DNA of 64,000 bases from Verrucomicrobiota bacterium (GTDB lineage: Bacteria > Verrucomicrobiota > Verrucomicrobiia > Chthoniobacterales > JACTMZ01), in NCBI GenBank assembly GCA_014584375.1, contig JACTMZ010000103.1, forward strand, positions 90 through 64,089, given 5' to 3'. The position numbers and the translations under genes were made by a program. The notes below the pieces were generated by a model. The model was not told where the DNA came from and searched no databases. It saw only the letters and a list, made by a program, of their open reading frames with translations. This document shows, piece by piece, positions 30,642 through 51,209 of the stretch. The number at the start of each line of letters is the position of its first letter. Positions within the stretch are counted from its first letter, which is position 1.

Positions 30642-32267
30642 ATGAAAAGTTTTTTGCAGTTTCTGGTTTTCATCCTGGCGATCACGCTGGCTTTGGCCGG
30701 GTTGTATGCGTGGAAAAGCGGCTATTTCAACCGCGCCGCATCACCGCCTTCCCTGGAATCCCATGCCCCGCCGTCCGTGGCCAAGCCGGTGATCCCGCCG
30801 GGACGAATTCCGGGGCTTGCGGCTTTGGATGAGGAATTTGGACGCGTGGCTGGCGCGGTGGTTCCATCGGTCGTCAGCATCACTGCGCCGCGCGGGGACA
30901 GGATTGACCCGAGGGAGGAAATACTCCGCCAGTTTTTTGGCATGGGGCGTCCGCCGCAGCATGACGGGACAATGGCGCAGGGGTCGGGAGTGATTGTTTC
31001 GGAGCAGGGGCATATTGTGACCAATCTCCATGTGATTGAAGGTGCCTCGGAGGCGTCGGTGAGTCTTGCTGATGGACGTCGTTTTTCCGCAAAGCTGCTT
31101 GGAGCTGATCCCCGCACGGATTTGGCGATTTTGAAAATTGACGCAAACGGACTTCAACCGCTCGGATTTGCGGATTCGGAAAAGGTGCGTGTCGGGCAGC
31201 TTGTTTTCGCCGTGGGCAATCCCTTCGGCCTCCAGGAATCCGTCACCCAGGGCATTATTAGCGCACGCGAACGCCTTTTTTCCAGCGAGTCGGTGAATGA
31301 GTTTTTCCAGACGGATGCGCCGATCAACCCCGGGAATTCCGGTGGCCCCCTGGTCAACATCCGGGGGGAAATTGTGGGCATCAACAACTTCATTTTCTCG
31401 CAATCCGGCGGGAGCATGGGCATCGGCTTTGCAATTCCCGCCAACACCGTGCGCCGCGTGTTTGAACAAATTGTTCAGCATGGCCGCGTCCTGCGTCCGT
31501 ATTTCGGCGTTTTCTTGCAGCCGCTGACCGCAGAAACGGCGGTTCGGGTTGGGGCGGCCCCCGATGCGCGCGGTGCTTTGGTCGCGGGTGTCGAATCCGG
31601 TTCTCCGGCGGCAGCGGCGAATATTCAGCCGGGCGATGTTATTCAAAAATTTGACGGACGCGAAATTCGAGATTTCAACGATTTGCGCAAGCGGGTTGCG
31701 GAGGCGAGTCTGGGAACGGAGGTTCGCGTCTCGCTTTTGCGGGGCGGAAAAACCCTCGAAGTTCCCGTGCGGATCCGGGAAATGTCTGCGGATGGTGCAG
31801 CGTTTTCCGCGCCCGATCCCGGTGGAACGCCGAATAATCCCGCCGCGGGCAATGTGTTTGCCGGCGTGTCGGTGCGCGAGATCACTCCCGTCTTGGCTAC
31901 AAAATTTCGTCTGCCCTCAGCCATCGAGGGCGTGCTGATCCAAGCCGTGGAACCGGGGACATCCGCCGCCTCCGTCCTGCGCCCAGGTGACGTGATTGAG
32001 CAAATCAATGATACGCCGATTTCCTCGCCGGCGAATTTTTTGCAGACCGCCGCCGCGCTGCCTCCGGGCGAAAAAGCCGTCGTCCTGATCGCCCGCGGCC
32101 CCGTACGAACCTTCGAAGTCGTCGGCCCAAACACCGCAAAAGGGCACCGCATGGCCCCCGATGGCAAGGCGTCGCCGGTCATGATATCGCCGGAGTTTTC
32201 CCTATTTCCGCACGCCTTGTTTTTAGCTTGGCGAGGGGCTTGGTTTATCCTTGTCAGCTTCTTATAG
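30642..32267 (+). CDS. htrA: HtrA/DegP-family serine protease with two PDZ domains
   Basis: N-terminal TM helix. The catalytic triad contexts are TNLHV, DLAILKI and GNSGGPLVN, followed by two PDZ-like regions. The last ~45 aa look non-homologous and overlap the convergent methyltransferase gene. Confidence 0.9.
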   Translation: MKSFLQFLVFILAITLALAGLYAWKSGYFNRAASPPSLESHAPPSVAKPVIPPGRIPGLAALDEEFGRVAGAVVPSVVSITAPRGDRIDPREEILRQFFGMGRPPQHDGTMAQGSGVIVSEQGHIVTNLHVIEGASEASVSLADGRRFSAKLLGADPRTDLAILKIDANGLQPLGFADSEKVRVGQLVFAVGNPFGLQESVTQGIISARERLFSSESVNEFFQTDAPINPGNSGGPLVNIRGEIVGINNFIFSQSGGSMGIGFAIPANTVRRVFEQIVQHGRVLRPYFGVFLQPLTAETAVRVGAAPDARGALVAGVESGSPAAAANIQPGDVIQKFDGREIRDFNDLRKRVAEASLGTEVRVSLLRGGKTLEVPVRIREMSADGAAFSAPDPGGTPNNPAAGNVFAGVSVREITPVLATKFRLPSAIEGVLIQAVEPGTSAASVLRPGDVIEQINDTPISSPANFLQTAAALPPGEKAVVLIARGPVRTFEVVGPNTAKGHRMAPDGKASPVMISPEFSLFPHALFLAWRGAWFILVSFL

Positions 32268-35200
32268 GAGCGAGCTTGCCGGTGCGCAGCAGGGTGCGGA
32301 AGGTGTCCAGGGTTTCGGTCTTCATGGCTTCGTCCACGAGCGGGAAGGTGGCGAGGATGTGGGCGAATTCCTCCTCGGTCAGGTCGTAGAGCCGGGCGAC
32401 GAGGGCATCGAGTTCGGCGCGCAGGCGGCGGCGGGCGGCCTCGTCCCGAACGCCGTGGGTTTTGTGGGTGGCCTTCGGGCCGAAAATTTCCCGCAGCAGG
32501 TCGTCAAACTCCGCGCTCGTCCCCACCAGCCGCGCCGCACGCTCGACCAGCGGACGAAACGCCGCGTCGGCGGCGGTCAGGCGCGGGATGGGGAGCTGGT
32601 ATACCATAAACATGGAGATACTTGTCGTGACTCGTTTTCTAATGCACCAATCCACCGTAAAACTGTTCATCACCGCGCATAAGAACAAAGGTTCTGCCGC
32701 ACACGAAAAGCAATGCAGGTCGGACAGCATGAGTTTGTGGTTTGCAAACACGTTTCTCGGTAGGATCGTGGCAAGCATCGTTCGTTCATTCGTGTTGCTC
32801 GCGATTTCTCTGAATGCGAACCGATAGCGTGTCGAATGAAGTCGCTTGTCTTCAGATGTTGTCAGACCAAGGCGAGCATATCCATCATCCGAGGACACCC
32901 AATACTTGGCATTAGCGAAATCAGAACAGAACTGATGAATCATCTTTCCCTCGAATAACCTGAATGCACTTCGTTCCGAACTAGCTAAGAAAAGATCGCT
33001 GTCATTAGTCATATGCAGCTCATTCGTGAGCTTGAGTTTCCAGCGGCCATCGACGGTTCTTCCAAGCAGGGGATTCCGAAGTAGTTTGTCGAATATCTCT
33101 ATGTCAGCTTGGGAGTGAAATTCGAGAAGAGAAAGCGAGTCTGGTGATAGTTTCTCGATCAGGGCGCGGGAGAGGCGCAGCGGGGCGGCTTCCGGAAAGC
33201 TGGCGAGTTCCGGCGGGTCGTGCCGCATGAAGGCGACGGGAAACTCGGAGGTGACGCCGCCTTTTTCGAAGGAAAGGACGACGAATTTGAAACGCGAGTC
33301 CACGCCTTCGAAGATGGCTTTGCGATTTTCGAACCCGAAGAGTCCGGTGAGGCGGGTGCGGTCGAAGAGCATGAGCCGGAGCTGCTTGGTGCCGAGGTCG
33401 GTGTAGATGCCGCTGGGGATGACGATGCCGCAGCGTCCGCCCGCGCCGAGGAGGTTGACGCATTGTTCGGTGAAGAGCTTGTAGAGGTTGATGTCGCTGC
33501 CGGCCTTGCGCCCGTTTACGATGCTGATCTGATTCTCGAACTGCGGGGCGGCGCGGAACCATTCGCTGACATGCGGGAAGCCGGAGAGGTAGCCGAGCCA
33601 GGCCGTGTGGATTTCCGGGTCGCAGAGGAGGCTGGCTTTCTCGTCCTCGAAGTCCTCGATGCGCATGGTGTTCTTGGTGACCAGCTCGCTGTGCTGCTGG
33701 AAGAACTCCTTGCTGTTCGGCTTGAAGATTTCCCACGGCGGATTGGTGATGATGGCGTCGAAGCCGCCGCGGGTGATGAGGATGTCGTCGAATTCGTAGG
33801 CCCAGTGGAAGGGGTGGAGGGCGCGGATGTCGTCGAGGGTGAGGGCGCGCTTCTCGGGTTTGCCTTCCTTTTTTTTTGCGGCATCCCAAGTGGCTTGTTG
33901 AAACTTGATGCCGAGGCGGTGGAATTCATCGAGCAGGAGCTTGTCGAGCACGAGGCGGGCGGCGGCTTTTTGCTCCTCGATGCTGCGGCGGAGGGTGACG
34001 AGGGCGTCGCTCTCCTTTGCGCCGCTGCCGATGAGGCTGGGAGCCTCCTTGTAGAGGGTGATGAGGCGGTTTTTCACGGCGAGGAGTTCGGCGTATTTCG
34101 CGGCGCGGACGGTGGCGAGGTGGGCAGCGATGGTTTCGGCACGCTTCGGAGCGGTGGTGGACTCGATGGTGAAGCCGAGATCGCCCTCCGTGGGCTCGTG
34201 GACAAGGGTGAGGCGCTGTTGTTGGCGTCCGGATTTCGGATTGGATGCGTCAAAGGCGGTGGCATCCACGTGGAGGAGGCCGATGAGGGAATTGCCGGAG
34301 AGGATGTTGAACTCGATGTTCGGGAGGGGTTCGAGCTGGTCGCGGTGCTCGGCGGAGGCGACGAGGGAGAGGAAGAGGCGGAGTTTGGCGATCTCGGTGG
34401 CTTCCTCCATGAGGTCCACGCCGAAAAGGTTTTCGGTGACGATTTTCTTTTTCAGCCAGTAAGCGAGCGGGGCCTTGTGGGCTTTTTTCTCGCGCTGGAT
34501 CCAGTCGAGCACGGGCTTATGGGCGAGGGCTTCGCAGCGGCCGAGCAGGGCGGTGTAGAGATTGAGCAGGGTTTTCTGCGCGGCAACAAGGAAGGCACCG
34601 GAGCCGCAGGCGGGATCGAGCAGGGAGAGGCTCGGGAGGATGTCGTGGAGGAGGCGGGCGCAGAGCGGGCCGTCGGCGTGGAAGAGGAGGTCGTCGAGGC
34701 CGGTGAAGAGGCGGGGCGCGGGGAAGGATTTGGGATTCTGCCGGTGGAGTTTCTCTGCGGCGGCGTGGCCGGCATTGGCGCGGTCGAGCACGAGCTGGTG
34801 GATGGTCTGCTCACAGAGGTATTCGGTGATTTCGGGCCGGGTGTAGTAGGCGCCGAATTCCTTCTGGTTGATGTATTTTTCGAAGATGTAGCCGAGCACG
34901 TCGGGATTGATCTCGCGGTCATCGCCGCCGGGGGTGTCATTGAGGCTCCAGGTGTAGCGGCGGAAGAGGGTGAAGAGATCGGCAAAGGCGGCGTCGGGGA
35001 TTTCGATTTTCGCGTAGGCGGCGGTGAGGAGGCCATCGCCCTCGATGCGCTGCTCGATGCCGTGGGGCAGGAAGAGTCCGCCGTTGAGATACGGGATGTC
35101 GCCAAGCGGGACGGAGCCGACGGGCTGGCGCTTGGCGGCGGGCTTGGCGAAGCCTTCGAAGAAGAGGTCGCGCAGGGTGTGGGAGAAGAAGCGGTTTTCC

Positions 35201-35925
35201 CCGGACTTGCCGGAGGCTGCGAGCAGGGCGGGCAGGTAGTCGCGGTTGCCACCGTCGAGGAAGCCTTTTTCCTGCATGAACCAGACGAACATGAGGCGGT
35301 TGAGCAGGACGGAGGCATACCAGCGGCGCTCGCGGGGGTCGGGGATGCCGTGAATGAGGTCGAGCAGCTTGAGATGTTCGTTCTGAAAATCGCGGAAAAA
35401 CTGCTTGGTGACGGTCTCCACATCGAGGGCGCGCTGGACGCGAGTGGCGGTCTCGGTGAGCGAAAAGTGGCCGTCTTCGTCCAGCTCGGAAATGTCCACA
35501 AACAGGGCGGAGAGTTTGGAGAGAAACAGGTCGCCGGGCTGGCCACGCAGGTAGTGGTGGCGGCGGGGGATGCGCATTTTCCCGCCCTGCTCGCGGCGCA
35601 CCCAATACCAAAGGGAGCGGGTGCGCTGGGGATCGAGGAAGATGAGGATGTTTTCGTGACTGATGGCGGTGACCTGCTTCCATGCGGCGGCCTGCTGCGC
35701 GGCATCCGGGAGCTGGCCGTCGGCGGCCACCGCCTCAAACACCCGGCAGCCGGCAAGCTGGGCGATCTCGGTGAGGGTGAAGTCGGCGGACGGGTTGCCA
35801 GCGGTGAGGACGGCGGTTTTTTTCGACGCAGGCGGCTCCCAGCCGAGTTCTTCGATGAAGAGCTTGTGGAAGGCGAATGCTTGGAGGTGCTGGCGGGCAC
35901 GGGTGGTGTTGAGGCGGGTGGACAT
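32254..35925 (-). CDS. large gamma-class N6-adenine DNA methyltransferase with fused C-terminal TaqI_C-like target-recognition domain (Eco57I/type IIG-like, COG1002-type)
   Basis: 1223 aa. Motifs: GAYYTRPEI (aa ~358-366); motif I LLDPACGSGAF (DPACGSG = 34597-34617, verified by back-translation); CGNSL-like ILSGNSLIG; HPFHWAYEF...GGFDAIITNPPW with NPPW at 33733-33744 (verified). The helical region LLNRLMFVWFMQEKGFLD is typical of type IIG/ISP-like enzymes. C-terminal EGKMIHQF...RFAFREIASNTNERTMLATILP is the specificity-domain pattern. Confidence 0.9.
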   Translation of the reverse strand: MSTRLNTTRARQHLQAFAFHKLFIEELGWEPPASKKTAVLTAGNPSADFTLTEIAQLAGCRVFEAVAADGQLPDAAQQAAAWKQVTAISHENILIFLDPQRTRSLWYWVRREQGGKMRIPRRHHYLRGQPGDLFLSKLSALFVDISELDEDGHFSLTETATRVQRALDVETVTKQFFRDFQNEHLKLLDLIHGIPDPRERRWYASVLLNRLMFVWFMQEKGFLDGGNRDYLPALLAASGKSGENRFFSHTLRDLFFEGFAKPAAKRQPVGSVPLGDIPYLNGGLFLPHGIEQRIEGDGLLTAAYAKIEIPDAAFADLFTLFRRYTWSLNDTPGGDDREINPDVLGYIFEKYINQKEFGAYYTRPEITEYLCEQTIHQLVLDRANAGHAAAEKLHRQNPKSFPAPRLFTGLDDLLFHADGPLCARLLHDILPSLSLLDPACGSGAFLVAAQKTLLNLYTALLGRCEALAHKPVLDWIQREKKAHKAPLAYWLKKKIVTENLFGVDLMEEATEIAKLRLFLSLVASAEHRDQLEPLPNIEFNILSGNSLIGLLHVDATAFDASNPKSGRQQQRLTLVHEPTEGDLGFTIESTTAPKRAETIAAHLATVRAAKYAELLAVKNRLITLYKEAPSLIGSGAKESDALVTLRRSIEEQKAAARLVLDKLLLDEFHRLGIKFQQATWDAAKKKEGKPEKRALTLDDIRALHPFHWAYEFDDILITRGGFDAIITNPPWEIFKPNSKEFFQQHSELVTKNTMRIEDFEDEKASLLCDPEIHTAWLGYLSGFPHVSEWFRAAPQFENQISIVNGRKAGSDINLYKLFTEQCVNLLGAGGRCGIVIPSGIYTDLGTKQLRLMLFDRTRLTGLFGFENRKAIFEGVDSRFKFVVLSFEKGGVTSEFPVAFMRHDPPELASFPEAAPLRLSRALIEKLSPDSLSLLEFHSQADIEIFDKLLRNPLLGRTVDGRWKLKLTNELHMTNDSDLFLASSERSAFRLFEGKMIHQFCSDFANAKYWVSSDDGYARLGLTTSEDKRLHSTRYRFAFREIASNTNERTMLATILPRNVFANHKLMLSDLHCFSCAAEPLFLCAVMNSFTVDWCIRKRVTTSISMFMVYQLPIPRLTAADAAFRPLVERAARLVGTSAEFDDLLREIFGPKATHKTHGVRDEAARRRLRAELDALVARLYDLTEEEFAHILATFPLVDEAMKTETLDTFRTLLRTGKLAPIRS

Positions 35926-35930
35926 GAGGA

Positions 35931-35961
35931 AAGGGTGAAGGATGAATTATGAAGGGTGAAG
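35931..35961 (-). promoter_or_regulatory. two copies of a 10-nt direct repeat, 21 nt apart, in the 47-nt gap just upstream of the methyltransferase start
   Basis: The plus strand reads AAGGGTGAAG at 35931-35940 and again at 35952-35961 (CTTCACCCTT on the coding strand). The spacing is two helical turns. A regulatory role is speculative. Confidence 0.3.
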
Positions 35962-35972
35962 AGTGGCCGAGG

Positions 35973-37352
35973 TTAGACGCGGCCTTTGGGGGTGAGGCGG
36001 TATTTTTGCAGGCGGCTGTTGGGTTTATCGGGCCGTGTCGGCACGATGAGTCCGGCTTCCAAAGCCGGGAGCAAATAGGCTTTGCGGAAGTGTTCCCGAT
36101 CAGTCAGCCCGAGTTTATCCTGTAACTCCTGTCGGGTGTGTTCACCTGTGAAAGCACCCAAAAGCTGTTGGACTTGCGGGGTGACTTGCGGGGTAACTTG
36201 CGGGGTGACTGGTTCAGGCACTTTCACCGCCTTGAGGTATTCCGGCGCAAAGCGGAACTCGACGGTGAGGCCGGTGCCATCGAAGCTGAGCGCGGGTCTG
36301 GGGGTGCCAGCTTCCTTGCAGGCGGAAAAGATGCGTTCGATGCCACGGCCCCAGGTCTCGATCTCCCCGGAACGAAAGAAGACGTGAGCGATGGAGGGGT
36401 TGAACGGTGTCGAAGAGTGTGTCCCGAGAAGCGTTTTCACGGTCCAGCCATCTGGGAGGACGGCGGGATTCCAGATGCGGAGGCGGTCTTCATACACGCG
36501 GATCTGCACGGGCGCGCCGATGGCGTAGTCGCGATGGACGAGCGCATTGAGCACGGCCTCGCGCAGGGCGGCATCCGGCACGGGGTAGCGCTCGATGCGC
36601 TGGAGGCCCTGATAGGTGATGGCGGCTTTGAGATACTTGGTGCGGACAAGATCAATGGTCTTTGCGGCCTGAGTGAAGAGGTCGCCTTGGATCAGGTCAT
36701 GGTAGGCGAGGTCGGATTCGGAACGGAAGAAACCGATTTTTACGAAGGTTCCGGCGACGTAGCGCCCGGGATCTGCATGAAAAAGGAGCACGGCGGCGCG
36801 GCGGAGGTAAGTGCCCTCGGTGAGCTGGAGTCTTTCCACAAGGGAGATCTTCGATGAGCGCAGGTCCGCCGGATCGAGCCGTCCGCTGCTGCGGGCGAGA
36901 TTGCGAAACTGGCTGATGGCAGCGGTGGAGAGATCGGTAACTTTGACACCCGGCATGGGCACGGCATCCCAGGTGCGACCATGCTTGCGGAGGAGAAAGC
37001 GGTCCAGCGCGACCCCTTTCTGCTCCTGGAGCGTGCTGCCGCTGCGGGTGGAATAATGCCCGCGATAGCTGATGGGGTTTGGGTAGGGCGGGACGATGAT
37101 TTCGAGGAAGTCGCCGCCGTTTTCCTGACGGAGATTTACCTCGGCGACGATGCCGAGCACATCGCGGACTTTATTCGGCAGCTCTTCGAGAAGCTTGGCG
37201 GCATCCGGCAGACCGATGACGACGCCTTGATCATCCCTGCCGATGTGCAAGGCACCGCCCCCGGCATTGGCAAAGCCGCAGAGCCAGCGTAAATTCTCAT
37301 CCCGCCAGGTTTCCTTCCATTCAAGGTGCTGGTGTTCTTTCATGGGGAGCAT
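35973..37352 (-). CDS. AlbA_2 (Schlafen-like, formerly divergent AAA_4) + HATPase_c_4 (RecG-C-like) + C-terminal winged-helix protein
   Basis: N-terminal EHQHLEWKETW (the E..LEfK start of AlbA_2). Central REAVLNALVHRDYAIGAPVQIRVYEDRLRIWNPAVLP...TPFNPSIAHVFFRSGEIETWGRGIERI (HATPase_c_4 pattern). A (TPQV)3 linker, then ELQDKLGL.DREHFRKAYLLPALEAGLI...PDKPNSRLQKYRLTPKG (wHTH tail). An alternative start exists at 37343. Confidence 0.8.
   Translation of the reverse strand: MLPMKEHQHLEWKETWRDENLRWLCGFANAGGGALHIGRDDQGVVIGLPDAAKLLEELPNKVRDVLGIVAEVNLRQENGGDFLEIIVPPYPNPISYRGHYSTRSGSTLQEQKGVALDRFLLRKHGRTWDAVPMPGVKVTDLSTAAISQFRNLARSSGRLDPADLRSSKISLVERLQLTEGTYLRRAAVLLFHADPGRYVAGTFVKIGFFRSESDLAYHDLIQGDLFTQAAKTIDLVRTKYLKAAITYQGLQRIERYPVPDAALREAVLNALVHRDYAIGAPVQIRVYEDRLRIWNPAVLPDGWTVKTLLGTHSSTPFNPSIAHVFFRSGEIETWGRGIERIFSACKEAGTPRPALSFDGTGLTVEFRFAPEYLKAVKVPEPVTPQVTPQVTPQVQQLLGAFTGEHTRQELQDKLGLTDREHFRKAYLLPALEAGLIVPTRPDKPNSRLQKYRLTPKGRV
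36172..36211 (-). repeat. 12-bp tandem repeat, about 3.3 copies, encoding (TPQV)3
   Basis: The plus strand reads ACTTGCGGGGTG / ACTTGCGGGGTA / ACTTGCGGGGTG / ACTG. The reverse complement translates to PVTPQVTPQVTPQV, inside the AlbA_2-family gene. Confidence 0.9.
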
Positions 37353-37370
37353 CGGAGTGGATGGCGCGTT

Positions 37371-40300
37371 TCAAGGAATCATGATCCCGAGGGAGCAGAT
37401 GATGCGGGGTTCGCGGGCGTGGGCTTCCTCGATTGGGGTGCAGAGGCGGTCTTCCTCGTGGAGGGTGAGGACGAGTTCGGCGAGTTTTTCGTGGGAAACG
37501 TCGGCGCGCAGGTCACGGCTGAGCAGCTCGCGGGCGTGCTCACTAAGCGGGGCAGCGTAGATGGCATCGAGAGCCTGGTGGAGGGCTTTGATGTCGAAGA
37601 GCGTGCCTTGGACTGCGGCGGCGTGGTCTTTGAGCCGTTCATAGACGCGGCGGCGGGTGCTGCCGGGTTTTCCGAGCTGACCGCCGGTAGTGCTGTGTTC
37701 CTGCTGGATGCCGGTGACGGCCTGGCGGACGAGGTCGTGGTGATTGGCCAGGCGCGGCAGAGCGGGTGTGGAGGGCTCGCACTCGGCGGCGCGGAGGATT
37801 TCATGCTGGCTCTCGGTGACGGTGCGGCCCTGTTCGTCCACCCAGGCGAGGGCATCGTGGCCATCGGTCGTGCGGATATAGACCATGGCACCGGAAGCGG
37901 GCTGCACGCCGCCGGTGGCGGATGCCGGACGCGGCGGGACGGCGGAGAGTGCCTTGGTGCTAAAGACGACATTGGCGAGATTCGGGATCGTCTGGCGCAG
38001 GGCGGGATCGGCATCGCTGGCGTTTTTCCAAATCTGCCAGGCGAGCGAGGCAAGATCTACCTCGCCGTCCTCGGGGTCGTCGAGGGTGCCGCCTTTTTCG
38101 GTGAAGAGATCCTGGAGGAGGTGGTCGTGGCGCTCGTCCTCGAAGAAGGTTTCATCGGTGCCGACGACTTGCGCATTTTCATCAAGACGCTGGCGGATGC
38201 GCTCGCGCAGGCGAATGAGCCGATTGACGCCATCCGCCGGAAGGAAGGAATAGCATTGAATCTCCTCCGCCTTCTGCCCGATGCGGTCCACACGGCCCGC
38301 GCGCTGGATGAGGCGGATGATGGCCCAAGGCAGGTCGAAGTTCACCACCACGGCGGCGTCCTGGAGGTTCTGACCCTCGGAGAGCACGTCGGTGGCGATG
38401 AGGACGCGAAGTTCCTCGGTGGTGGAGACTTTGTCGCGCGCCTTGTTGCTCTCCGGGCTGAAGCGCCGCGTGAGGAGAGCAGGTTCCTCGGTGTTCCCGC
38501 AGACCGCGGCGAGACGGGTGACGCCGCGCGCCTTCAACTGCGCGGCAAGGTAATTTACCGTGTCGGAGAACTGCGAGAAAATGATCACCTTTTCATCGGT
38601 GTGGGTCTGGGTGAGCAGCTTGTGCAACTCGGCGAGCTTTTCGTCGCGCTCCGGCTCCCAGGCGCCGGACAGCTTGAGCGCGGAGAAGAGACGTTCGGCG
38701 TCCTGAAGTAGGTGTTCGCCAAGGCCGGGAACGAAGAGATCCGTCCGCAGCCAGTCAAAGTTTCGCACATGGGCATGACGCAGGAGGTCGTAGGCCTGCG
38801 CGGCGACGGCTCGGAAATCCTCCAGCGAGGTGGCCGTGATCTCCGTCAGTTCGGGCGGAACGTCCTCCGTCTCCTGGCCGAAGAGACTGCTCTCGCTGTC
38901 GGCGTCCTCATCGCGCGTGTCGAACAAGGCGGTGTCCTGCGTGCCAATGGGCAGCGGCAGGCCGTTTTCGATGGCGTGGAGGGCGATAAAGTTGCGCAGG
39001 ATGTGGCGGCGCAGCGAGAGGAGGAAGGAGTGGCCGCTGCTTTCGAGGCGTTTGAAGAGATTCGTGCGGCAAAAGCCAATGAGGCGCTTGCCGGCGCGGG
39101 AGAGATTGCGCATTACCTCCGCCTCATCCTGCGAGGGCGGCGTGTCGAGCGTGGGACGGATGTAGTTTGCCAGCCCGTAGCGCGGCAGGTGCAGGATGCG
39201 GATGGTGTCAACCACGGCGTCGGAGTAGAGCTTCGCAAACTGGTCGTTGGGACTTTTTTCGCGAATGCGAAACTCCAACTTCTTCGGTTTGCGTTTCGGG
39301 AAGTGGAAACGGGTGCCGTCCTCGAGCAGCAGGAAGCGGCGGGCTGTGCCATCCCTGGCCGTGCCGCATTTCGGGCAGGCCTCCTGCACGCCGGAGAGGA
39401 TACCGTCGCACTCCGGACACGGCGACCACGCGTAGTTGGCCTCCACAAAGCTGCGCGTGCGGCGCACCATGTAGAGGCGCATCATTTCCCGCCAGTCGTC
39501 GGCGTGGCCGCTTTTCTCAAACGCGGCGAGGCAGTTCACCGGGCACTGGTGGCGGCGGGTGAATTCGTCCACGCGGCTGTCGCAGTCGCGGCGTAGGTAT
39601 TCCTCCGGGCGAATCGGAAGGGTCGCATCGGCATCGAGAAAGAGGCGGAGCTGGCTGGCCAGATCGAGGTAGGACTTGTTGTAGGGCGTGGCGGACAGCA
39701 GGATGACCTTGCAGCCGTTGCGCGAGATGTAGTCGCGGATCGCCGACCACCGGCGGCCCGCACGGTTGCGTAGGTTGTGGCTTTCATCAATGATGACAAC
39801 GCGGTAGCGGCGCAGCTCGGGCAGGATATTTTGCACCTGGGTGGCGGAGACAACCTTCGCGATGAGCCGGTAGCGGTGCGCGTAGTCCTCCCACATGCCG
39901 CAGAGATTTTTCGGGCAGACAATGAGCGTCTCCAGCGAGCGCGGCGGATCCTGGAAAACCCGCGCCAACGCAGTCGCCATGAGCGTCTTGCCGAGACCAA
40001 CCACATCCCCCAGCACCACGCCGCCGCGCTTCTCCAGCTTGCCCGCGGCCATGCGCACGGCCGCAGCCTGGAAATCGAGGAGTGTGTTCCGCAGGTCGGC
40101 GGGAATCTGAAACTCGGAGAGCCCGGCGCGCGCCTCCTCGGCCAGGTGGTAGGCCATTTTGATGTAAATCCAGTAGGGCGGCAGTGTGTCCAGTCCGGCC
40201 CAGCTTTCCTCGATGACCTGGATCAACTCCTGCGTGATGTCCACACACCAGCGGTCGTTCCAGCGGTCCTCAAACCATTTCGCAAGCTTCTGTGTCGCGT

Positions 40301-40844
40301 CGTGATCGAGTACATCGACATTCAACTCGCCCTGATGCGAGAGGCCTGAGAGCGTGAGATTGCTGCTGCCGAGAAAGCCGGTGATCGGGTTGTTCGGGTC
40401 ATCGCGGAAACACAGGTAGAGCTTTGCGTGCAGCGTGTGACGGAGGAAAAGTTTCACAACCACCTTGCCCGCTTTGAGCTGGGCGGCCAAGCGGCGCAAT
40501 CCCTTTTCGTCGGCGTCTGTGGGAGTGCCCAGTGTGAGCTGCTCGCGGAATTCTTCCGCCAATTTGCGTTTCAGGCGGATGACGCGTTGATTGCTGATTT
40601 CTTCGTTGCCGGTCGAGAGGCTCAGCGCATCGCGTAATTCGTCCCGCTCCGATTTTTGCATCCCTACCAACAGGCGGCACTGATTTCCCTCACCGCCGGG
40701 CCATTGCTCAATTGCTGAATCAATCGCCTTCCATCCGCGCAAATTGAAATAGCCGACGCAGAAATCCGACCGATGCCCCAAAGTGAGTGTTTGCTCAAGG
40801 GCGGGGAGGAGATTCTGTTCGATGTTGTCGAAAATCCGGGGCAT
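37371..40844 (-). CDS. HKD (phospholipase-D superfamily) nuclease domain fused to an SNF2-family helicase/translocase
   Basis: 1157 aa.
- Single HKD motif [26 protein letters not shown]: HAK = 40422-40430 (verified), motif to 40359.
- SF2 motif [10 protein letters not shown] (39984-39998).
- Motif II DESH at 39777-39788 (verified).
- CPEC-x10-CPKC zinc-ribbon-like insert (39366-39419).
- Motifs IV-VI: [34 protein letters not shown].
- About 290 aa of C-terminal region with no motif I recognise. Confidence 0.9.
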
Positions 40845-40951
40845 CCGTAATCTTTGACTGCGTCAACATTGATTCTCAAGCCGACTTTCTGCGGGTGGAT
40901 TTGAAAATTCGCGTGCTTGCGGCGGCGGGGGAGCGGGGGCACAGTGCGGGG

Positions 40952-41743
40952 ATGCCGCTTCTTTCCGTTCGCAATCTCCGCACGTGTTTTCCCGTGTTTG
41001 GCGGCGTTTTTCGGCGGCCGGTCGGGGAAATCCGCGCAGTGGATGGAGTGAGTTTCGACATTGAGGCGGGGCGGACGGTCGGACTGGTTGGGGAAAGTGG
41101 CAGCGGAAAAACGACTGTGGGACGAACGATTCTCAAGCTGACCCCGTCCACCTCGGGAGAGGTTCTTTATGAGGGACGGAACATTCTGCCGCTGAGCGAA
41201 GGGGAGTTTCGTCCGCTGCGCAAGGAAATGCAGATGATTTTTCAGGATCCTTTCGGATCGCTGAATCCGAGAATGACTGTTTTTGCGATTCTTGCGGAGC
41301 CATTGGAAATTCATTTTCCGAAAATGACCCGGAACGAGCGTCGCGAGCGTGTTGCGGAACTGTTGCGGCTGGTCGGCCTCCCGGAGGATGCCATGGGACG
41401 GTATCCGCATGAATTTAGCGGAGGTCAGCGTCAACGCATTGGCATCGCCCGCGCCCTGGCTGTCAATCCGCGTTTCATCGTCTGCGATGAGCCGGTGAGC
41501 GCCCTGGATGTGAGTGTGCAGGCGCAGATTGTCAATCTGCTCCAGGATTTGCAGGAGCAGTTGGGCATCGCCTATTTGTTTATCGCGCATGATCTGGCCG
41601 TGGTGGAGCACGTGAGCGATCAGGTTGTGGTGATGCACCGGGGGCGGATTGTTGAATCGGCGCCGGCGGACGTTATTTACTCCGATCCGCAGCACGATTA
41701 TACGAAGAAGCTGCTGGCATCCGTTCCACGGCTTGCCGCCTGA
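40952..41743 (+). CDS. OppF/DppF-type ABC transporter ATP-binding protein; no cognate permease or binding-protein genes nearby
   Basis: Walker [10 protein letters not shown], signature [15 protein letters not shown], Walker [13 protein letters not shown], and the oligopeptide-type C-terminal tail ([15 protein letters not shown]). I moved the start to the ATG at 40952 (MPLLSVRNL...). Confidence 0.85.
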
Positions 41744-41753
41744 TTTGTCGCTC

Positions 41754-42923
41754 ATGATTTCCATCGCCCGAAAACTTCTTTCACTGCATTGGTTGCTGCT
41801 CGTCCTCGCCGTTTTGCTCGGAATTTTTGGCATTTACGCCATTTACAGCGCGACATGGATGCGCGAGCAGACGTTTTGGAATCGTCAGTTGGTGTGGCTG
41901 CTGGTGGGGTTTGTGCTGTTTTTGGGGGTGTCATTGACGGATTACCGTTGGATTCGCAAAGGGGCGCTGCCGCTCTACATCGCGGGTCTGGCTGGGCTGC
42001 TGGCCACGCATTTTTTTGGTCAGGAAGTTTATGGCGCCCGGAGTTGGCTGGATTTTGGCTTTTTTAATTTTCAGCCATCGCAGCTTGCCCTGATAGCCGC
42101 CGTGATGGTGATGGCCATTTTTTTGGCGGACTACGAAAACATGCCGCCGATTCTTCGCATTGCGCTTTGCGGCGTGATCGTGGCGGCTCCCTGGTTGCTT
42201 GTGCTCATACAGCCCGACCTGGGTTCCGCCATTGTGTGGATGCCCGTCGTGATGGCGATGCTTTACGCCGCACGTGTTCCCGGACGCTATTTGATCACCC
42301 TGTTGCTTTTGGCTGTGGCCGTTGTTCCGCTGATGGTCAATTTCGGGCTCAAACCCTACCAGCGTCTGCGCATTGTCACCTTTTTGGATCCCGATCTGGA
42401 TCCGCGCGGCGCGGGATGGACGATCAACCAATCATTGACCGCCATCGGCTCCGGTGGATGGGACGGGAAGGGGTTTAAGGCGCCGAACACCCTCAATGAG
42501 CTGGGTTTTTTGCCGAGCACGATTGTTCACAACGATTTTATTTTTTCGGTGATTGGCGAGCAGCACGGTTTTGTGGGGGGATCGTTGTTGTTGCTGGGCT
42601 ATCTGCTTTTGATTGCCGTCGGACTTTATATTGCGTTGAAGGCGGGGGATGATCTGGGCCGCTTGCTGGCCGTGGGATTGACGACCCTTTTATTCACGCA
42701 TGTCTTTATGAACATCGGCATGACAATCGGTGTCACTCCGATCACCGGACTGCCGCTGCCGCTGGTCAGCTATGGCGGATCCTTTTTATTGACGGTGCTT
42801 TTCAGTCTCGGTGTGTTGCAAAGCATTTGGATCCATCGTGGGACGGTGTCGGTGTCGCAGCGTTTGGAAAAAATAAAGCCGGCGCGTGGGGCGATATTTC
42901 CCGGCGCGACGGGCTTGCGTTGA
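41754..42923 (+). CDS. SEDS-family peptidoglycan glycosyltransferase (RodA/FtsW)
   Basis: 389 aa with about 10 TM helices and SEDS motifs (QPSQLA, DLGSAIV, GWTINQSLTAIGSGGWDGKG, DFIFSVIGEQHGF, TGLPLPLVSYGGS). The ATG at 41754 is 10 nt after the ATPase stop. Confidence 0.85.
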   Translation: MISIARKLLSLHWLLLVLAVLLGIFGIYAIYSATWMREQTFWNRQLVWLLVGFVLFLGVSLTDYRWIRKGALPLYIAGLAGLLATHFFGQEVYGARSWLDFGFFNFQPSQLALIAAVMVMAIFLADYENMPPILRIALCGVIVAAPWLLVLIQPDLGSAIVWMPVVMAMLYAARVPGRYLITLLLLAVAVVPLMVNFGLKPYQRLRIVTFLDPDLDPRGAGWTINQSLTAIGSGGWDGKGFKAPNTLNELGFLPSTIVHNDFIFSVIGEQHGFVGGSLLLLGYLLLIAVGLYIALKAGDDLGRLLAVGLTTLLFTHVFMNIGMTIGVTPITGLPLPLVSYGGSFLLTVLFSLGVLQSIWIHRGTVSVSQRLEKIKPARGAIFPGATGLR

Positions 42924-42952: not shown

Positions 42953-43783
42953 ATGTCGCCCGCCCCAATCACAAGACTGCTTTCCCTGCTTGTTGCTGCA
43001 TTAATTTCTGCCGCAACCGTTGCACAGGGGGCGAGTTTTGAGGAGCAGGCCCTGCGGCTTCGGGAGAGCGTTCTTTTGCGCGTTGAACCCATGCTGCCGC
43101 GCACCCAGGCTCCCAGTCGTGCGGGAAACTCCCGCCGTTACCCCTGGAAAAACAACATTGTCACCACCGTTTTTTGGATTGGTGAGCTGCCGACAGTCAA
43201 TAATCCGGTGCCAAACACCAAAAGTTCGTGGGACAAGGAATGGGTGCGAAGCTACGGAGGGTTTGACGATCCAGATCCGCGCGGGCGCAGGGGGTATTTC
43301 CCGGCGCGTTTTATTCCGAGACAGAATCCCTTTTATGTGGCGCTTCCCTATAATGATGTCACTCAAGGTAAGACCAAGCCCGAGGCACCCCGGGTGATTC
43401 CGTGGTTTCGTGAGGCATTTGTGCGCGCAGGGGAGTCCGTGTGCAAAAGCCGCTGGGTGGTGGTGCGGGCACGCGGACGCGAGGCTTATGCTCAATGGGA
43501 GGATTGCGGTCCCTTCCGCACCGATCACTGGCAATATGTCTTTGGAAATCAGCGACCGCTTCCAAATCTCAATCAGGGGGCTGGGTTGGATATTTCGCCC
43601 GCCCTGCGCGATTATCTCGGCATGCGGGGCAAGGATGTGGCGAGCTGGCGTTTTGTGGAATTTCGGGACGTGCCGCGCGGACCCTGGGCGCAGTTCGGTG
43701 ACAACAACACTTTTGTCCAGCAGCGCCGCCGCGCCGACTCCCGTTTCGCCGGATCAGGCGGAATGACTTCGGGAAGCAATTGA
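42953..43783 (+). CDS. secreted hypothetical protein
   Basis: Signal peptide (LLSLLVAALISAATVAQG) when started at the ATG at 42953. The coding composition is good. No family confidently recognised. Confidence 0.55.
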   Translation: MSPAPITRLLSLLVAALISAATVAQGASFEEQALRLRESVLLRVEPMLPRTQAPSRAGNSRRYPWKNNIVTTVFWIGELPTVNNPVPNTKSSWDKEWVRSYGGFDDPDPRGRRGYFPARFIPRQNPFYVALPYNDVTQGKTKPEAPRVIPWFREAFVRAGESVCKSRWVVVRARGREAYAQWEDCGPFRTDHWQYVFGNQRPLPNLNQGAGLDISPALRDYLGMRGKDVASWRFVEFRDVPRGPWAQFGDNNTFVQQRRRADSRFAGSGGMTSGSN

Positions 43784-43810
43784 GGAAAAGGCGGGGGGCG
43801 GCTTTTGTCT

Positions 43811-43833
43811 GCTTCAAGAATACTTGAGGCTTT
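43811..43833 (+). terminator. candidate intrinsic terminator after the secreted-protein gene
   Basis: GCTTCAAG-aata-CTTGAGGC (8-bp stem with one G-U pair) followed by TTT, 28 nt after the stop at 43783. Confidence 0.35.
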
Positions 43834-43891
43834 GCGGAGGCGGTACTTGCGGAGAAAGCCTGAAAAGTGTTTGCTTTGACGTTTATTTCCT

Positions 43892-46674
43892 ATGGCACAA
43901 GCAAGCAATGAGGCGATGAAAGCCGAAGAACGAATTTATTCCCGGGCGGACAAGCTGACGGCGGCTGTGACGACTGTTGTGGCCGGGGCGGTTTATTTTT
44001 ACACGGCACAGCCCAATGTCGGATTGCTGGACTGTGGACAATTCTTGTCTGGCTCTTTCAGCTTTTACCCATTGGCAATGCCGCCTGGGAGGTGAATTTG
44101 TTCAGCGGTCTGTGCGGTGCGTTGGCTGTGGGAGTGACGACCCTGCTGGCTTCCAGCATGATCCGCTGGATGACGCCGTTTTGGAGTGTGCGGAATCAGG
44201 GGGTGTCATCCGTTGTCGCGGCTTTGATTTCGGGGAGTTTCGGGCTGTTGTTTGCCTTTAGTTTTTCATTTTGGACGCAGGCGGTCATTGCGGAGGTTTA
44301 CACTTTGCACGGATTGTTGGTGGGGCTGTATATTGCGTCGCTTTATTGGTGGGTGCGTCGCCCCTCCCGGGATTTGCCGATTTTGGCGGTGTTTTTCACG
44401 TTCGCGCTCTGCATGAGCAATCACCACCTGACGCTGGCTTTGGCGCCCCTGCCACTGTTGGTTCCGCTCTTAATCCGGCGCAGCGTGTTTTGGGAGGTGT
44501 TGGTTGCCTCCCTGCTTAGTGCGTCCATCATCTATCTCGGCTTTGGCTGGCTTTCCAAAGATCTCACCACATGGCATACGGCGATGCGGTTTTTCTATCT
44601 TGCCATGGCGGCCTTTGCTGTGCTGCTGGTTTTCAAATGGCAACGCGCCGACGTTCGCCTTGTTCTGCTTGTTCCCCTGGCTGTGATTCTCGGTCTTTTG
44701 CCCTATGCGTATATGCCGATCGCATCCTCAACCAATCCTCCGATGAATTGGGGCTATACACGGACACCCGAAGGCTTTTTCTACTCCATCAATCGCACGC
44801 AGTATGCCGGAAGTTTGTCAGATCTGGTCGTTCGCACCTTGGGCAAGGGCGTGGGGACGGCTCCGGAAAAACCGCCCGCGCGTCCTGATCCGACGCGCAT
44901 TTCGACGATGGAACTTGGACGTGAATTTGCGTCGTATTATTGGGGGAAACTTTTGGAAAACTTTACGCTTTGGTCCGCCATCGCGTTTTTCGCCGCCATT
45001 CTTGCGATTTTTCGCCTTCCGTTGTATCAGCGAACTTTTTTATATCTTCTGATTATCGGATTCATGCTGGCCGCCTTTTTGCAGCCGGTGATGGAGCGAA
45101 CGGAGGTTACGATAGACGTGTGGTCGTTGCAGTTTCCTTATCACGGCTATGCTTATTTGTTCTTTGCCTTGGTGTGCGTGGTGGGCACGGGATACGTTTT
45201 GACGCGCGCGGTGGATGCCAGGCCGTTTTTGCGTCATGCGGCTTGGATTCTGCCCTTTTTGCCGCTTTGGACACTGATTCAAAATGAGCCTCTGTGCAGT
45301 CAGCGCGGGCATTGGTTTGGCTGGGAGTATGGTCATGACATGTTGAAGGATTTGCCGCGTGGCGCCTTTGTGTTCGGCGGCACGGATCCCGGGCGTTTTG
45401 TCCCCACTTACATGATCCTCGGCGAAAGTTTTGTGGATCCGAAATATCGCCGTGATCCTGATTTTGACCGCCGGGATTTGGTGATTGTGACGCAAAATGC
45501 GTTGGCGGACGCCTTTTATCAGCGATATATCCGGGATCATTACGCTCCGGAGCGTCCGGAGGCGCGCGGATGGTTTGAAAAATGGCTGGAGCGGGGCAAA
45601 CAATATCCGACGGACACCACTGTTTTGCCCAAGGAACAGGATATTGTGAACATCGTCCGCGAGGCATCGCAGAATCTTCCGCCGGGAGTCAGTCCCCAGG
45701 ATCCAAGCGTTGGTGTCCTGTATCACAGCGCCATTGCGCGATGGATTTTTGATCACAACAAGAACAACCGGGAATTTTTCGTTGAGGAAAGTTTTCCGAT
45801 GGAGTGGACCTATGCTTATGCGGTTCCGCACGGCTTGATTTATCGTTTGAACAAGGAGCCGTTGGACAGCCTGCCACCCGAGGCGGTCGCGGAGGATTTT
45901 CGCTATTGGGACGCCTATGTGAAACGGCTGCTTTCGGATGAAAAATACCAGAGGGATTTTGACGCCAAGCGATCCTTTTCAAAACTGCGCAATTCCATCG
46001 CCAACATTTATCGGTGGCGAAAAATGTGGCCGGAGGCCGAGCGCGCCTACCGTCAGTCCCTCGCATTGCATCCGAACAATTTGGAGGCGCTTCTTGCCAT
46101 GAGCGACATTTTGCGAATGCAGAAGAGGTGGGGGGATCTGGAGGAAATTTGGGATCGCGCAGTGGCCGGCGATCCGACCAATCGTTCCATTAAAAGAGCG
46201 CGCGCGCGGATTCCGCGTTTGCGGGAGATTGATCGTGAAATTCAGACGCTCAAAGGCGAGCTGGCCGCAAATCCGCAGGATGGGGGGACGCTTTCCAATT
46301 TGTTGAGGCTTTATATGGAGGCGGGGCAGCCCGAGGAAGTGCGTGAGCTGTTGAGTGAATCCATGAAATCTTACGGTGACAACATTGATTTCCTGAGATT
46401 TGCCGTTGATTTTTCCAATACAAACGGTCAGTGGCAGGCGGGATTGGAACCGGCTCGCAAACTCGTGCAGTTGGTTCCCAACGATCCCTCGTTGTGGCTC
46501 GCCCTCGCACGATTCGAATTCGCCAATCGCCAGACAAATGCCTTCCTCGACGCCGCACGCAAGGCCGTTCAGCTCGGAGGTCAGCAGGCCAAGATGATCA
46601 TTGCCAAGGATCCGCTTTACGCACAGATACGGGGTTCCCAGGAATTCGCCCGCCTGCTCGGCGCCGGCTCCTGA
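43892..46674 (+). pseudogene. DUF2723-type membrane glycosyltransferase-like protein with C-terminal TPRs, disrupted near its 5' end by a frameshifting deletion
   Basis: ORF 43892-44095 encodes the family N-terminus (...AVYFYTAQPNVGLLDCGQF, compare the family pattern T.aPtv.fwDsGEF). The body is in another frame: open from 43912, conserved from ILVWLFQLLPIGNAAWEVNLFSGLCGALAV at about 44041, with ORF-track GTG start at 44092. The intervening conserved HPPGYP segment is missing. The remainder is intact: many TM helices (FWTQAVIAEVYTLHG) and TPRs. Confidence 0.6.
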
Positions 46675-46684
46675 GACGCCGGGA

Positions 46685-47488
46685 TTAAAAAAACGGATTG
46701 TTGGATTTTTCCCAGCCGACCGTGGTGAGCGGTCCATGGCCGGGACAAAGGATGGTGTCGTCCGGAAGTCCGAGAATTTCGCGCCGAATCGCCTTGAGTG
46801 CGCCGGAGTAGTCGCTTCGCACGCCGCCGATGGAGCCCGCGAAAAGTGCGTCGCCGACAATCGCAGCCCTCGCCGCCAGACCTTCTATGAGAAATGTGGT
46901 TCCGCCCGGAGTGTGTCCGGGGGTTGATCGCGTGCGGATAAAATGTTTTCCGACATTGAACAAATCGCCCGGGCGAAATGTGCCTGCGCCGCGAACAGGT
47001 TCTGCTTCCGCAACCCACGCTTCGGCATCAAGCTCGTGCAAAAGGGCATCGAGTGAGCCGGTGTGATCGGGGTGACTGTGGGTGAGAAAAATGGCCGCGA
47101 CATCGAGCGTTTCACGCCGCACCAGATCCAAAATCGGACGCGCATCAAGGCCGGTGTCAAAAATGGCGGCTGCGCGCGTCGCGGGATCCCAGACAACATA
47201 GGCGTTGACGGTTGTGTCACCAAATGTCTCGGTCACGGTCGCAAGCCACACGGGGGCGGGAATCTCCGGCGGGCGGTTTCCCTGGGCCAGGCGGACGAGG
47301 GCATCCGCCCGAAGCTTCAATGTCGGCGCCAGGGCCCGCAGGTCGTCTTGGTCAAACTCCCCGGCGATCAGTCGGCACACGGAATCCTCCGGAATTCCCG
47401 CGATTGCGGCGGCCTCGCCCGGCGCAAGTCCCAGCCCCTGCATCGCCTTGCCAAGCACATCGGAAAAATTGTCTTCCAGTGGAATCAT
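46685..47488 (-). CDS. metallo-beta-lactamase-fold hydrolase with an N-terminal HTH-like domain
   Basis: THSHPDHTG (HxHxDH) plus downstream His/Asp ligand contexts. The N-terminal ~70 aa resemble a short XRE-like HTH. The start overlaps the upstream ABC gene stop by 4 nt. Confidence 0.8.
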   Translation of the reverse strand: MIPLEDNFSDVLGKAMQGLGLAPGEAAAIAGIPEDSVCRLIAGEFDQDDLRALAPTLKLRADALVRLAQGNRPPEIPAPVWLATVTETFGDTTVNAYVVWDPATRAAAIFDTGLDARPILDLVRRETLDVAAIFLTHSHPDHTGSLDALLHELDAEAWVAEAEPVRGAGTFRPGDLFNVGKHFIRTRSTPGHTPGGTTFLIEGLAARAAIVGDALFAGSIGGVRSDYSGALKAIRREILGLPDDTILCPGHGPLTTVGWEKSNNPFF

Positions 47489-51087: not shown

Positions 51088-51209
51088 TGATGGGAAATTA
51101 GCCCGCTGCGGCGCGCCCGCAAAGCCTTTGCATCGTAAATTTCACGCAGTCGTGAATTGCACCCCGCTCCCGGTTCAGGCTTAATCAGTCCCTTCATTTC
51201 GCAAAAATC

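Follow-up and report, generated by a model that had tools for sequence, protein, structure and literature searches.

RESULTS

Gene content of the locus

The window analyzed here is a 64,000-nucleotide (nt) stretch of contig JACTMZ010000103.1 from a Verrucomicrobiota bacterium, and our subject is a gene within it that joins a nuclease domain of the phospholipase D (PLD) type, with its HKD motif, to an SNF2 ATPase. The gene lies at positions 37371 to 40844 on the minus strand and consists of a single open reading frame (ORF) of 1157 amino acids (aa) with an ATG start, as determined by ORF calling and translation. The ORF is a genuine gene rather than a chance reading frame: more than 8000 protein clusters (90% identity) were matched over its full length, and relatives occur in at least 587 species-representative genomes, including those of Synechocystis PCC 6803, Mycobacteroides abscessus, and Rhodococcus. 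In public annotations, the members of this family are named "helicase-related protein" or "NgoFVII family restriction endonuclease."

The HKD-SNF2 gene forms an island with two other co-directional genes, which specify an AlbA_2 protein and a methyltransferase and are separated by intergenic gaps of 18 and 47 nt (Table 1). The G+C content of the island is 0.62 to 0.64, versus about 0.57 to 0.58 in most segments of the flanking DNA. Housekeeping genes border the island: an HtrA-like protease gene on one side and, on the other, genes for an ABC ATPase and FtsW. The protease ORF (30642 to 32267, plus strand) is convergent with the methyltransferase ORF, and their 3' ends share 14 nt (32254 to 32267), such that the island adjoins a housekeeping gene without a spacer or an obvious terminator region. 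A 389-aa ORF situated just upstream of the HKD-SNF2 gene (40664 to 41833, minus strand) was rejected as a gene, as it is antisense to the ABC transporter ATPase gene.

Conservation was evaluated in an alignment of 146 homologs spanning three clades: that of the window protein (clade 1), a Synechocystis clade, and an actinobacterial clade. The AlphaFold2 model of the full-length protein, built from this alignment, has a predicted local distance difference test (pLDDT) score of 84 and a predicted template modeling (pTM) score of 0.81.

TABLE 1 Features of the three-gene island in the window, with the basis on which each was delimited
Feature	Position	Strand	Basis
HKD-SNF2 gene, proposed restriction subunit, 1157 aa	37371..40844	-	ORF; Pfam PLDc_2, SNF2-rel_dom, and Helicase_C; AlphaFold2 model
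N-terminal single-HKD (PLD-fold) nuclease domain, aa 1-225	40170..40844	-	Pfam; invariant residues; profile search
SNF2 ATPase lobe 1, aa 240-400; motif I GLGKT at 39984-39998, also DESH and SATP	39645..40127	-	Pfam; Foldseek
Inter-lobe region, aa 401-735: helical protrusions and beta module	38640..39644	-	Secondary structure of the model; invariant P516 and R518
CxxC-x10-CxxC zinc-ribbon-like element (C476/C479/C490/C493), within a 24-residue lineage-specific insertion	39366..39419	-	pLDDT 92-95
Disordered acidic loop, aa 641-672	38829..38924	-	11 D/E per 30 residues; pLDDT <50 at aa 645-660
SNF2 ATPase lobe 2 and brace helix, aa 736-900; motif VI at 38283-38306	38145..38639	-	Pfam; model
Family-specific C-terminal domain, aa 930-1157	37374..38057	-	AlphaFold2 model; conservation
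AlbA_2 (Schlafen-like), HATPase_c_4, and winged-helix gene, 459 aa, inserted accessory cargo	35973..37352	-	Pfam
Eco57I/MmeI-like gamma-class N6-adenine methyltransferase, 1223 aa, proposed modification/specificity subunit	32254..35925	-	Pfam; PADLOC; NCBIfam

A single, intact HKD site

Judged from its sequence, the N-terminal domain belongs to the PLD/HKD superfamily of nucleases and has an apparently intact active site. Pfam PLDc_2 matches aa 27 to 195 with 38.6 bits (cut-off, 27), and a weaker match to RE_NgoFVII at aa 120 to 193 also lies above the curated cut-off. The site is formed by H139-A-K141 (40422 to 40430) and G159-S-S-N162 (40359 to 40370), and H139, K141, G159, S160, S161, N162, E173, and N175 are each invariant in 146 of 146 aligned sequences. 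A sequence-only reading of this locus had recognized one HKD motif (H139-x-K141...GSSN) and had made its proposal depend on the integrity of that site. Both Pfam and the AlphaFold2 model agree on one HKD per chain, and the site is intact throughout the alignment. Because each chain contributes only a single HKD, a dimer would be needed to make up one active site.

The best match of a profile of the N-terminal 225 residues among solved sequences is SauUSI (7clg_A; E, 7e-5), after which the profile also finds PLD3/PLD4, the vaccinia nicking-joining enzyme, and, weakly, BfiI. The profile was needed to reach SauUSI; a PDB search with the single HKD-domain sequence returned no match.

An SNF2 motor with a lineage-specific, predicted zinc ribbon

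The sequence motifs and the predicted fold of the motor both indicate a true SNF2 ATPase, with two RecA-like lobes, helical protrusions, and a brace. Pfam SNF2-rel_dom scores 47.8 bits (cut-off, 24.9) and Helicase_C scores 63.1 bits at aa 735 to 856. The GLGKT, DESH, SATP, and QRAGRVDR signatures are conserved, with the Walker A residue K286 in motif I, motif III at aa 384, motif IV at about aa 754, and motif VI at aa 847 to 854, and there is no variation in ATPase motifs I, II, or VI among the 146 homologs. When the full-length model was searched with Foldseek, the top PDB matches were CSB/Rad26, SRCAP/SWR1, INO80, Chd1, and Rad54 (E, 6e-14 to 1e-10); all of the top 50 matches were SNF2 remodelers, and SauUSI was not among them. 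That the best PDB matches are SNF2 translocases suggests a motor of the double-strand DNA translocase type, and the earlier assignment of an SNF2 motor to the fusion is upheld by both the Pfam scores and the Foldseek matches.

The inter-lobe region contains two features that the sequence-only reading had described, a zinc-ribbon-like element and an acidic insert. The first is present exactly at 39366 to 39419, with CPEC (aa 476 to 479) and CPKC (aa 490 to 493) spaced ten residues apart between motif III and motif IV, and strands are predicted within it (pLDDT, 92 to 95). The cysteines C476, C479, C490, and C493 are kept in 43 of 43 aligned clade 1 sequences, with variation confined to the spacer residues, and the CxxC pattern occurs in 120 of 120 close relatives (73 to 100% identity). 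The element is absent from the Synechocystis clade (0 of 120 proteins), the actinobacterial clade (0 of 69 aligned sequences), and plasmid homologs (0 of 6). It occurs in 6 of 73 species-level helicases, five from Verrucomicrobiota/Kiritimatiellia and one from Pirellula (Planctomycetota). By conservation and model, the predicted zinc ribbon appears to be a real but lineage-specific decoration of the inter-lobe loop that lies outside the core mechanism, being part of an insert of 24 residues found only in Verrucomicrobiota, Kiritimatiellia, and one relative from Planctomycetota. The acidic insert is likewise found between the lobes as described, is disordered in the model, and varies in sequence among homologs.

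Two genes make up the conserved unit

The conserved unit consists of the HKD-SNF2 gene and the methyltransferase gene. Our census covered homolog-bearing contigs, annotated plasmids, and 80 species-level genome loci, 76 of which include enough downstream sequence to be informative. In 74 of the 76 informative loci, the helicase gene is directly followed, on the same strand, by a gene for a methyltransferase homolog, often after a gap of 0 to 60 nt. All-against-all clustering of the ORFs from the 80 loci returned only two families that are present everywhere, the helicase and the methyltransferase. No gene for an AAA+ loader, a DUF499 protein, or a DUF3780 protein occurs in the window island or among the recurrent neighbors of the 80 loci. 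The two-gene unit recurs across the many phyla and lineages of metagenome-assembled genomes listed in the genome scan, and on plasmids and conjugative elements. Related loci sit on mobile elements and in defense islands, beside GmrSD, toxin-antitoxin, and Schlafen cargo.

Next comes a family of DprA/Smf-like proteins that are about 200 aa long (PF02481; E, 2e-14) and whose gene lies downstream of the methyltransferase gene on the same strand in 30 of the 80 loci. It either directly abuts the methyltransferase gene or is 1 to 3 kb away (e.g., L030:14714-15346, L016:14934-15488, and L002:16801-17355). This protein may be a frequent third component of the family. It is absent from the window island, where the best tblastn match has an E value of 0.27.

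The helicase and methyltransferase genes meet at a junction that is a hotspot for insertions: about 21 of the 74 loci contain 0.45 to 2.9 kb of unrelated small genes there. Among the inserted genes are those for PIN/VapC toxins, DUF3800, PDDEXK_3, KilA-N, an HSDR_N-like protein, 23S-rRNA-IVP, and an AAA_15/AAA_21 ATPase. Loci with such gaps include L019, L029, L037, L043, L047, L051, L066, L070, and L084; in the window, the corresponding segment is 35926 to 37370.

In the window this segment holds the AlbA_2 gene, which was found at the junction only here and in a relative that is 84% identical (L003). The combination of a Schlafen domain, a minimal histidine-kinase-like ATPase, and a winged helix has been described as a widespread auxiliary effector whose gene lies inside BREX and BREX-related loci (PMC12839542). 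Its sporadic presence at the junction, together with an architecture known from auxiliary effectors, marks the AlbA_2 protein as cargo and not as a core subunit, and the neighborhood census rules it out as a core partner. The sequence-only reading had offered the HKD-SNF2 protein's C-terminal region as a docking surface for it. Because the AlbA_2 gene is sporadic while the C-terminal domain is conserved across the family, that domain is not a general dock for the AlbA_2 protein. In Nostoc punctiforme pNPUN01 (L015:11078-15103), the partner methyltransferase is a 1341-aa protein with a C-terminal AlbA_2 domain (aa 1180 to 1322), and a functional tie of AlbA_2 to the modification subunit is possible in some lineages. 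Within the AlbA_2 protein of the window, the linker that precedes the winged helix contains a tandem repeat, VTPQ-VTPQ-VTPQ-V (36171 to 36209, minus strand), at the place where the L003 homolog has TPEV-TPEV.

The partner methyltransferase

The methyltransferase has the motifs DPACGSGAF (34591 to 34617) and NPPW (33733 to 33744) and probably methylates one adenine of a short asymmetric site. A PDB sequence search with this protein returned no match. Two methyltransferase subtypes occur as partners of helicases that are 68 to 75% identical to the window protein; the subtypes have the first ~420 residues and the catalytic core in common and diverge downstream. The actinobacterial helicase clade (~40% identity) includes a Rhodococcus plasmid on which the partner is an MmeI-family enzyme without an N-terminal nuclease domain. 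The association of similar helicases with different methyltransferase subtypes indicates that specificity resides in the methyltransferase and not in the helicase. Within the window subtype, the most variable segments are aa 1001 to 1120 (31 to 49% identity) and aa 561 to 700, versus 55 to 65% identity elsewhere, which is the pattern expected of a target-recognition region. That the helicase is interchangeable among subtypes also means that a conserved interface must exist, and we infer that its natural candidates are the family-specific C-terminal domain of the helicase and the methyltransferase region common to both Eco57I-type subtypes.

A counterpart of this pair is found in Synechocystis PCC 6803, where slr6050 (M.Ssp6803IV) is 37% identical to the window methyltransferase over the N-terminal 419 residues and the helicase-related gene upstream of it on pSYSX is 48% identical to the window HKD-SNF2 protein. 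In this locus (L010; pSYSX, 43696 to 51129), a small ORF and a VapC toxin gene lie between the helicase gene and slr6050 (L010:11487-12120). The methylome study of this organism tentatively assigned slr6050 to the asymmetric, hemimethylated motif GA(m6A)GGC, reported that its knockout never fully segregated, noted an HSDR_N-like similarity, and is silent on the upstream helicase-related gene (PMC6105098). The apparent essentiality of slr6050 may be due to autorestriction by the upstream HKD-SNF2 gene, since lethality of the knockout is the effect that an active cognate nuclease would give.

A non-segregating knockout is also what an addiction module would produce, and SNF2 proteins have many roles outside defense. 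The pair could accordingly be conceived of as an addiction or epigenetic module, or as one for DNA repair or remodeling, that does not restrict invading DNA. We consider this very improbable, as the HKD site is intact and invariant and the loci occur in defense islands and on mobile elements; addiction and defense are, moreover, not mutually exclusive for restriction-modification systems.

The N terminus of the methyltransferase raises the question of which protein cleaves DNA. The best PADLOC match of the methyltransferase is REase_MTase_IIG (2e-102; aa 4 to 383), a model of bifunctional Type IIG enzymes, and an atypical nuclease is conceivable. The N-terminal 130 residues contain no D...(D/E)xK triad that is conserved among the homologs. 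E91 is the only acidic residue kept in at least 80% of them, position 93 (the third of a would-be ExK) is hydrophobic, and slr6050 has a serine at position 91. From these residues, we read the methyltransferase as having a degenerate nuclease-like N terminus and as depending on the HKD-SNF2 protein for cleavage.

The converse arrangement, in which the methyltransferase is a self-sufficient Type IIG/IIL enzyme and the HKD-SNF2 protein an independent or auxiliary effector that travels along, could draw on the PADLOC match, the HSDR_N-like similarity of slr6050, and the retention of E91. It seems improbable to us, given the missing triad and the substitutions at positions 93 and 91, the near-obligate tight linkage of the two genes, which argues for one functional unit, and the actinobacterial MmeI-type partners that have no N-terminal nuclease domain.

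A C-terminal domain without detectable relatives

The 303 residues that follow motif VI have no Pfam match. Residues 857 to 900 complete lobe 2 and the SNF2 brace helix, aa 891 to 929 form an acidic linker modeled with low confidence, and the domain proper spans aa 930 to 1157. The sequence-only reading had left about 290 residues after motif VI unplaced; the lack of a family match was correctly noted, but the actual domain is smaller because aa 857 to 900 belong to lobe 2 and the brace. When modeled alone with AlphaFold2 (pLDDT, 89.6), the domain consists of an alpha-beta-beta-beta-alpha core and a five-helix bundle, and its last strand rejoins the sheet. Residues D930, S933, W939, R991, D997, G1055, and R1070 are invariant across the three clades, and H1035 is nearly so.

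The model presents aa 930 to 1157 as a confidently folded module, and searches of Pfam, PDB, and BFVD detected no relative of it. Pfam scans of 22 members of the domain returned nothing recurrent, a profile of the domain had no match among PDB chain sequences, and Foldseek returned no convincing match in PDB (best E, 0.08) or BFVD (best E, 0.06). A RapA-like C terminus, with an inactive restriction-endonuclease fold and an alpha+beta domain, has been suggested for the BREX-related helicase (PMC12839542). When the C-terminal profile was aligned to E. coli RapA with hhalign, motif VI alone aligned.

An HMMER scan of 1.84 billion representative sequences found the domain in 704 clusters. Among the 150 of these clusters that were listed, full-length proteins (about 1050 to 1250 aa) have the domain at their C termini, and most others are short fragments. 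In three proteins, P0365 (937 aa), P0370 (543 aa), and P0393 (436 aa), the domain is followed by 140 to 280 further residues, which may be fused on by read-through into the downstream gene or may belong to a genuinely longer architecture.

A universal C/H/H/C zinc site within the domain was considered and ruled out, as C1022 and C1150 are replaced by A/S and H1036 by D/E in the actinobacterial clade. C1022 and C1150 covary (C/C in two clades and A/S in the actinobacterial clade), a pattern that points to two residues in contact, to a disulfide, or to a metal site restricted to some clades rather than a universal one.

The C-terminal domain is the best candidate for the surface that couples the HKD-SNF2 protein to the methyltransferase. 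Docking of the methyltransferase at this site had been put forward in the sequence-only reading and may still hold, but a mirror-tree analysis with partial correlations, which compared the HKD, motor, and C-terminal distances with those of the methyltransferase N terminus in 56 gene pairs, gave no domain-specific signal (Spearman, 0.24 to 0.45; partial correlations, <=0.23).

Elsewhere in the window, 47485 to 51087 (minus strand) encodes a 1200-aa protein in which an N-terminal TerB-like domain is joined to an ABC ATPase and an ABC-2 membrane domain, an unusual fusion that is unrelated to the HKD-SNF2 gene.

DISCUSSION

Relation to known systems

The best solved HKD match, SauUSI, is a Type IV enzyme from Staphylococcus aureus (PDB 7CLG) that forms a stable dimer through its nuclease domains, translocates with ATP, and shreds the DNA between sites (PMC7913695). 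[quoted passage not shown] Unlike the window protein, it attacks methylated DNA, has its own target-recognition domain, and lacks a methyltransferase partner.

A similar order of domains, an HKD nuclease followed by a Swi2/Snf2-type ATPase, occurs in MtsD, the effector of the methylation-based defense MANTIS, which was once called Gao_RL and is also known as Type-2 BREX-related; MtsD acts where asymmetric sites, which are hemimethylated in the host, lack methylation. MtsD was resolved by cryo-electron microscopy at 2.2 Å as a dimer with one composite PLD site, and it acts downstream of a methyltransferase that hemimethylates asymmetric 6-bp sites (10.64898/2026.09.23.753747). That methyltransferase is unable to bind DNA without MtsA, and its deletion is harmless because it also targets the nuclease, with only a catalytically dead version being toxic (10.64898/2026.09.23.753747). 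Restriction by MANTIS is favored by inverted site pairs, which was explained by the collision of a preformed dimer with a site-bound complex (10.64898/2026.09.23.753747).

The window locus differs from MANTIS in both gene content and sequence. MANTIS requires the DUF499 AAA+ ATPase MtsA and the DUF3780 protein MtsB, neither of which is in the window island, and for the MANTIS/Type-2 BREX-related system a standalone MtsB is reported in 98% of taxa (PMC12839542). The window protein scores 150.2 bits against the NCBIfam equivalog NF042964 (cut-off, 1100), and lobe 2 is the only part that aligns well. The window protein is ~260 residues longer than the 895-position model and has its own C-terminal domain. 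The window methyltransferase gives Eco57I/MmeI-type matches, and no MANTIS methyltransferase model is among them.

The window pair contains the same activities as the Type ISP enzymes LlaGI and LlaBIII, namely, a nuclease, a double-stranded DNA translocase, a gamma-class N6-adenine methyltransferase, and a target-recognition domain (PMC3874165). Type ISP enzymes recognize asymmetric sites and need a pair of sites arranged head-to-head and two enzyme molecules (PMC3874165). In contrast to the window system, in which the activities are split over two genes and the nuclease is of the HKD type, a Type ISP enzyme is one polypeptide with an Mrr-like PD-QxK nuclease. The ATP-dependent Type II enzymes CglI and NgoAVII also couple a PLD-family nuclease to an SF2 helicase-like motor. 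Class 1 DISARM likewise has an SNF2 helicase (DrmD), a PLD nuclease (DrmC), and an N6-adenine methyltransferase (DrmMI), and PADLOC matches at the window locus extend to 3e-32 for DrmD and to 8e-23 for DrmMI; the bit score for the DISARM_DrmD model is 129, with 610 as the cut-off. In DISARM, the PLD and SNF2 domains are encoded by separate genes, and DrmA and DrmB (DUF1998) are required. Neither DrmA nor DrmB was found in the three-gene island or among the recurrent neighbors of the 80 loci.

By the features that define these systems, the locus is neither MANTIS, nor Type ISP, nor Class 1 DISARM. Our literature search found no paper that names or tests a two-gene system of an HKD-SNF2 protein and an Eco57I-type methyltransferase, and the locus is best read as an unnamed, minimal family of ATP-dependent restriction-modification systems that is either split-Type-ISP-like or MANTIS-like. 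The view in the sequence-only reading that HKD-Snf2 fusions are biochemically uncharacterized is outdated for the class, in light of SauUSI and MtsD, and still true of the window family.

Similarities to other systems might instead point to a MANTIS, BREX-related, or DISARM system that is incomplete or degenerate at this locus and needs factors encoded elsewhere (an AAA+ loader, DUF3780, or DrmA/B). PADLOC and NCBIfam do report similarity to PLD_Helicase, phospholipD_antiphage, DrmD, BrxH, and DrmMI; the MANTIS methyltransferase needs MtsA to bind DNA; and the DprA-like gene found in many relatives is missing from the window. An incomplete system is nevertheless improbable when set against an NF042964 score far under the cut-off, the lack of AAA+, DUF499, or DUF3780 genes in the island or as recurrent neighbors, and the recurrence of the two-gene unit across phyla, plasmids, and conjugative elements. 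The methyltransferase, moreover, is of a different, larger family with its own N-terminal and variable regions.

Proposed mechanism

We favor, with some reservation, an interpretation in which the HKD-SNF2 protein is the motor-nuclease (restriction) subunit of a two-component ATP-dependent restriction-modification system whose other component is the methyltransferase at 32254 to 35925. By analogy with SauUSI, MtsD, BfiI, and Nuc, two HKD-SNF2 protomers would form a standing dimer through their HKD domains, with one composite H-K site. A methyltransferase bound at an unmethylated site would recruit or license this dimer, possibly with the C-terminal domain as the coupling surface. The SNF2 motor would then track along double-stranded DNA at the expense of ATP, and the single composite site would cut both strands in turn, independently of metal and away from the recognition site, with cutting probably strongest at inverted site pairs. 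The zinc ribbon and the AlbA_2 gene would be lineage-specific add-ons to this mechanism.

The sequence-only reading had also called for dimerization, in a model in which two translocating motors must meet: the motor would be monomeric, and the HKD half-site would become active only once two enzymes that travel from separate sites collide, as in Type ISP. A single HKD per chain, the need of Type ISP for two head-to-head sites and two enzyme molecules (PMC3874165), and the preference of MANTIS for inverted site pairs all accord with this model. However, in SauUSI and MtsD, the two solved HKD-helicase fusions, the nuclease domains hold together a stable dimer, SauUSI being the closest solved HKD match, and the orientation preference of MANTIS is explained by a preformed dimer that runs into a site-bound complex. 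The requirement for a dimer is retained, but the two motors need not meet. By analogy with these enzymes, an active site built by collision is a less likely variant than a standing dimer, and on the whole an unlikely one, and a dependence on site orientation may well apply.

Several observations weigh against the two-component interpretation. The nuclease activity of MtsD has not yet been reconstituted (10.64898/2026.09.23.753747). The strongest PADLOC match of the methyltransferase is to a bifunctional enzyme, and the mirror-tree analysis did not single out any domain as coupled to the methyltransferase. Finally, if the methyltransferase also targets the nuclease, as in MANTIS, a slr6050 knockout that does not segregate would fit poorly; the helicase-nuclease may be able to act without its partner, or the failure to segregate may have an unrelated cause.

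A further and more tentative proposal, which we regard as possible but on balance not the probable outcome, is that the family constitutes a distinct, unnamed class of ATP-dependent restriction-modification system. In such a class, a Type IIG/IIL-like methyltransferase whose nuclease domain is dead would be joined directly, with no AAA+ loader, to an SNF2-HKD motor nuclease, and a C-terminal fold not described before would make the connection. The class would be a minimal version of Type ISP and MANTIS, split by nature into two genes and spread over the many phyla and lineages of metagenome-assembled genomes in the genome scan.

Implications

This kind of enzyme is already known, and the window family, which is real and widespread and has one structurally unplaced domain, introduces no new principle. 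Defenses that combine methylation with a motor and a nuclease (Type I, Type III, Type ISP, BREX, DISARM, and MANTIS) are under active study, and MANTIS needs an AAA+ loader for its methyltransferase. A two-protein system without a loader, if true, would offer a simpler experimental handle on the same effector logic. Such a system could reveal how an HKD-SNF2 dimer receives unmethylated DNA from a site-bound methyltransferase and how self is told from non-self by means of hemimethylated asymmetric sites. The family may also explain unassigned asymmetric N6-methyladenine motifs, as well as apparently essential "orphan" methyltransferases such as slr6050.

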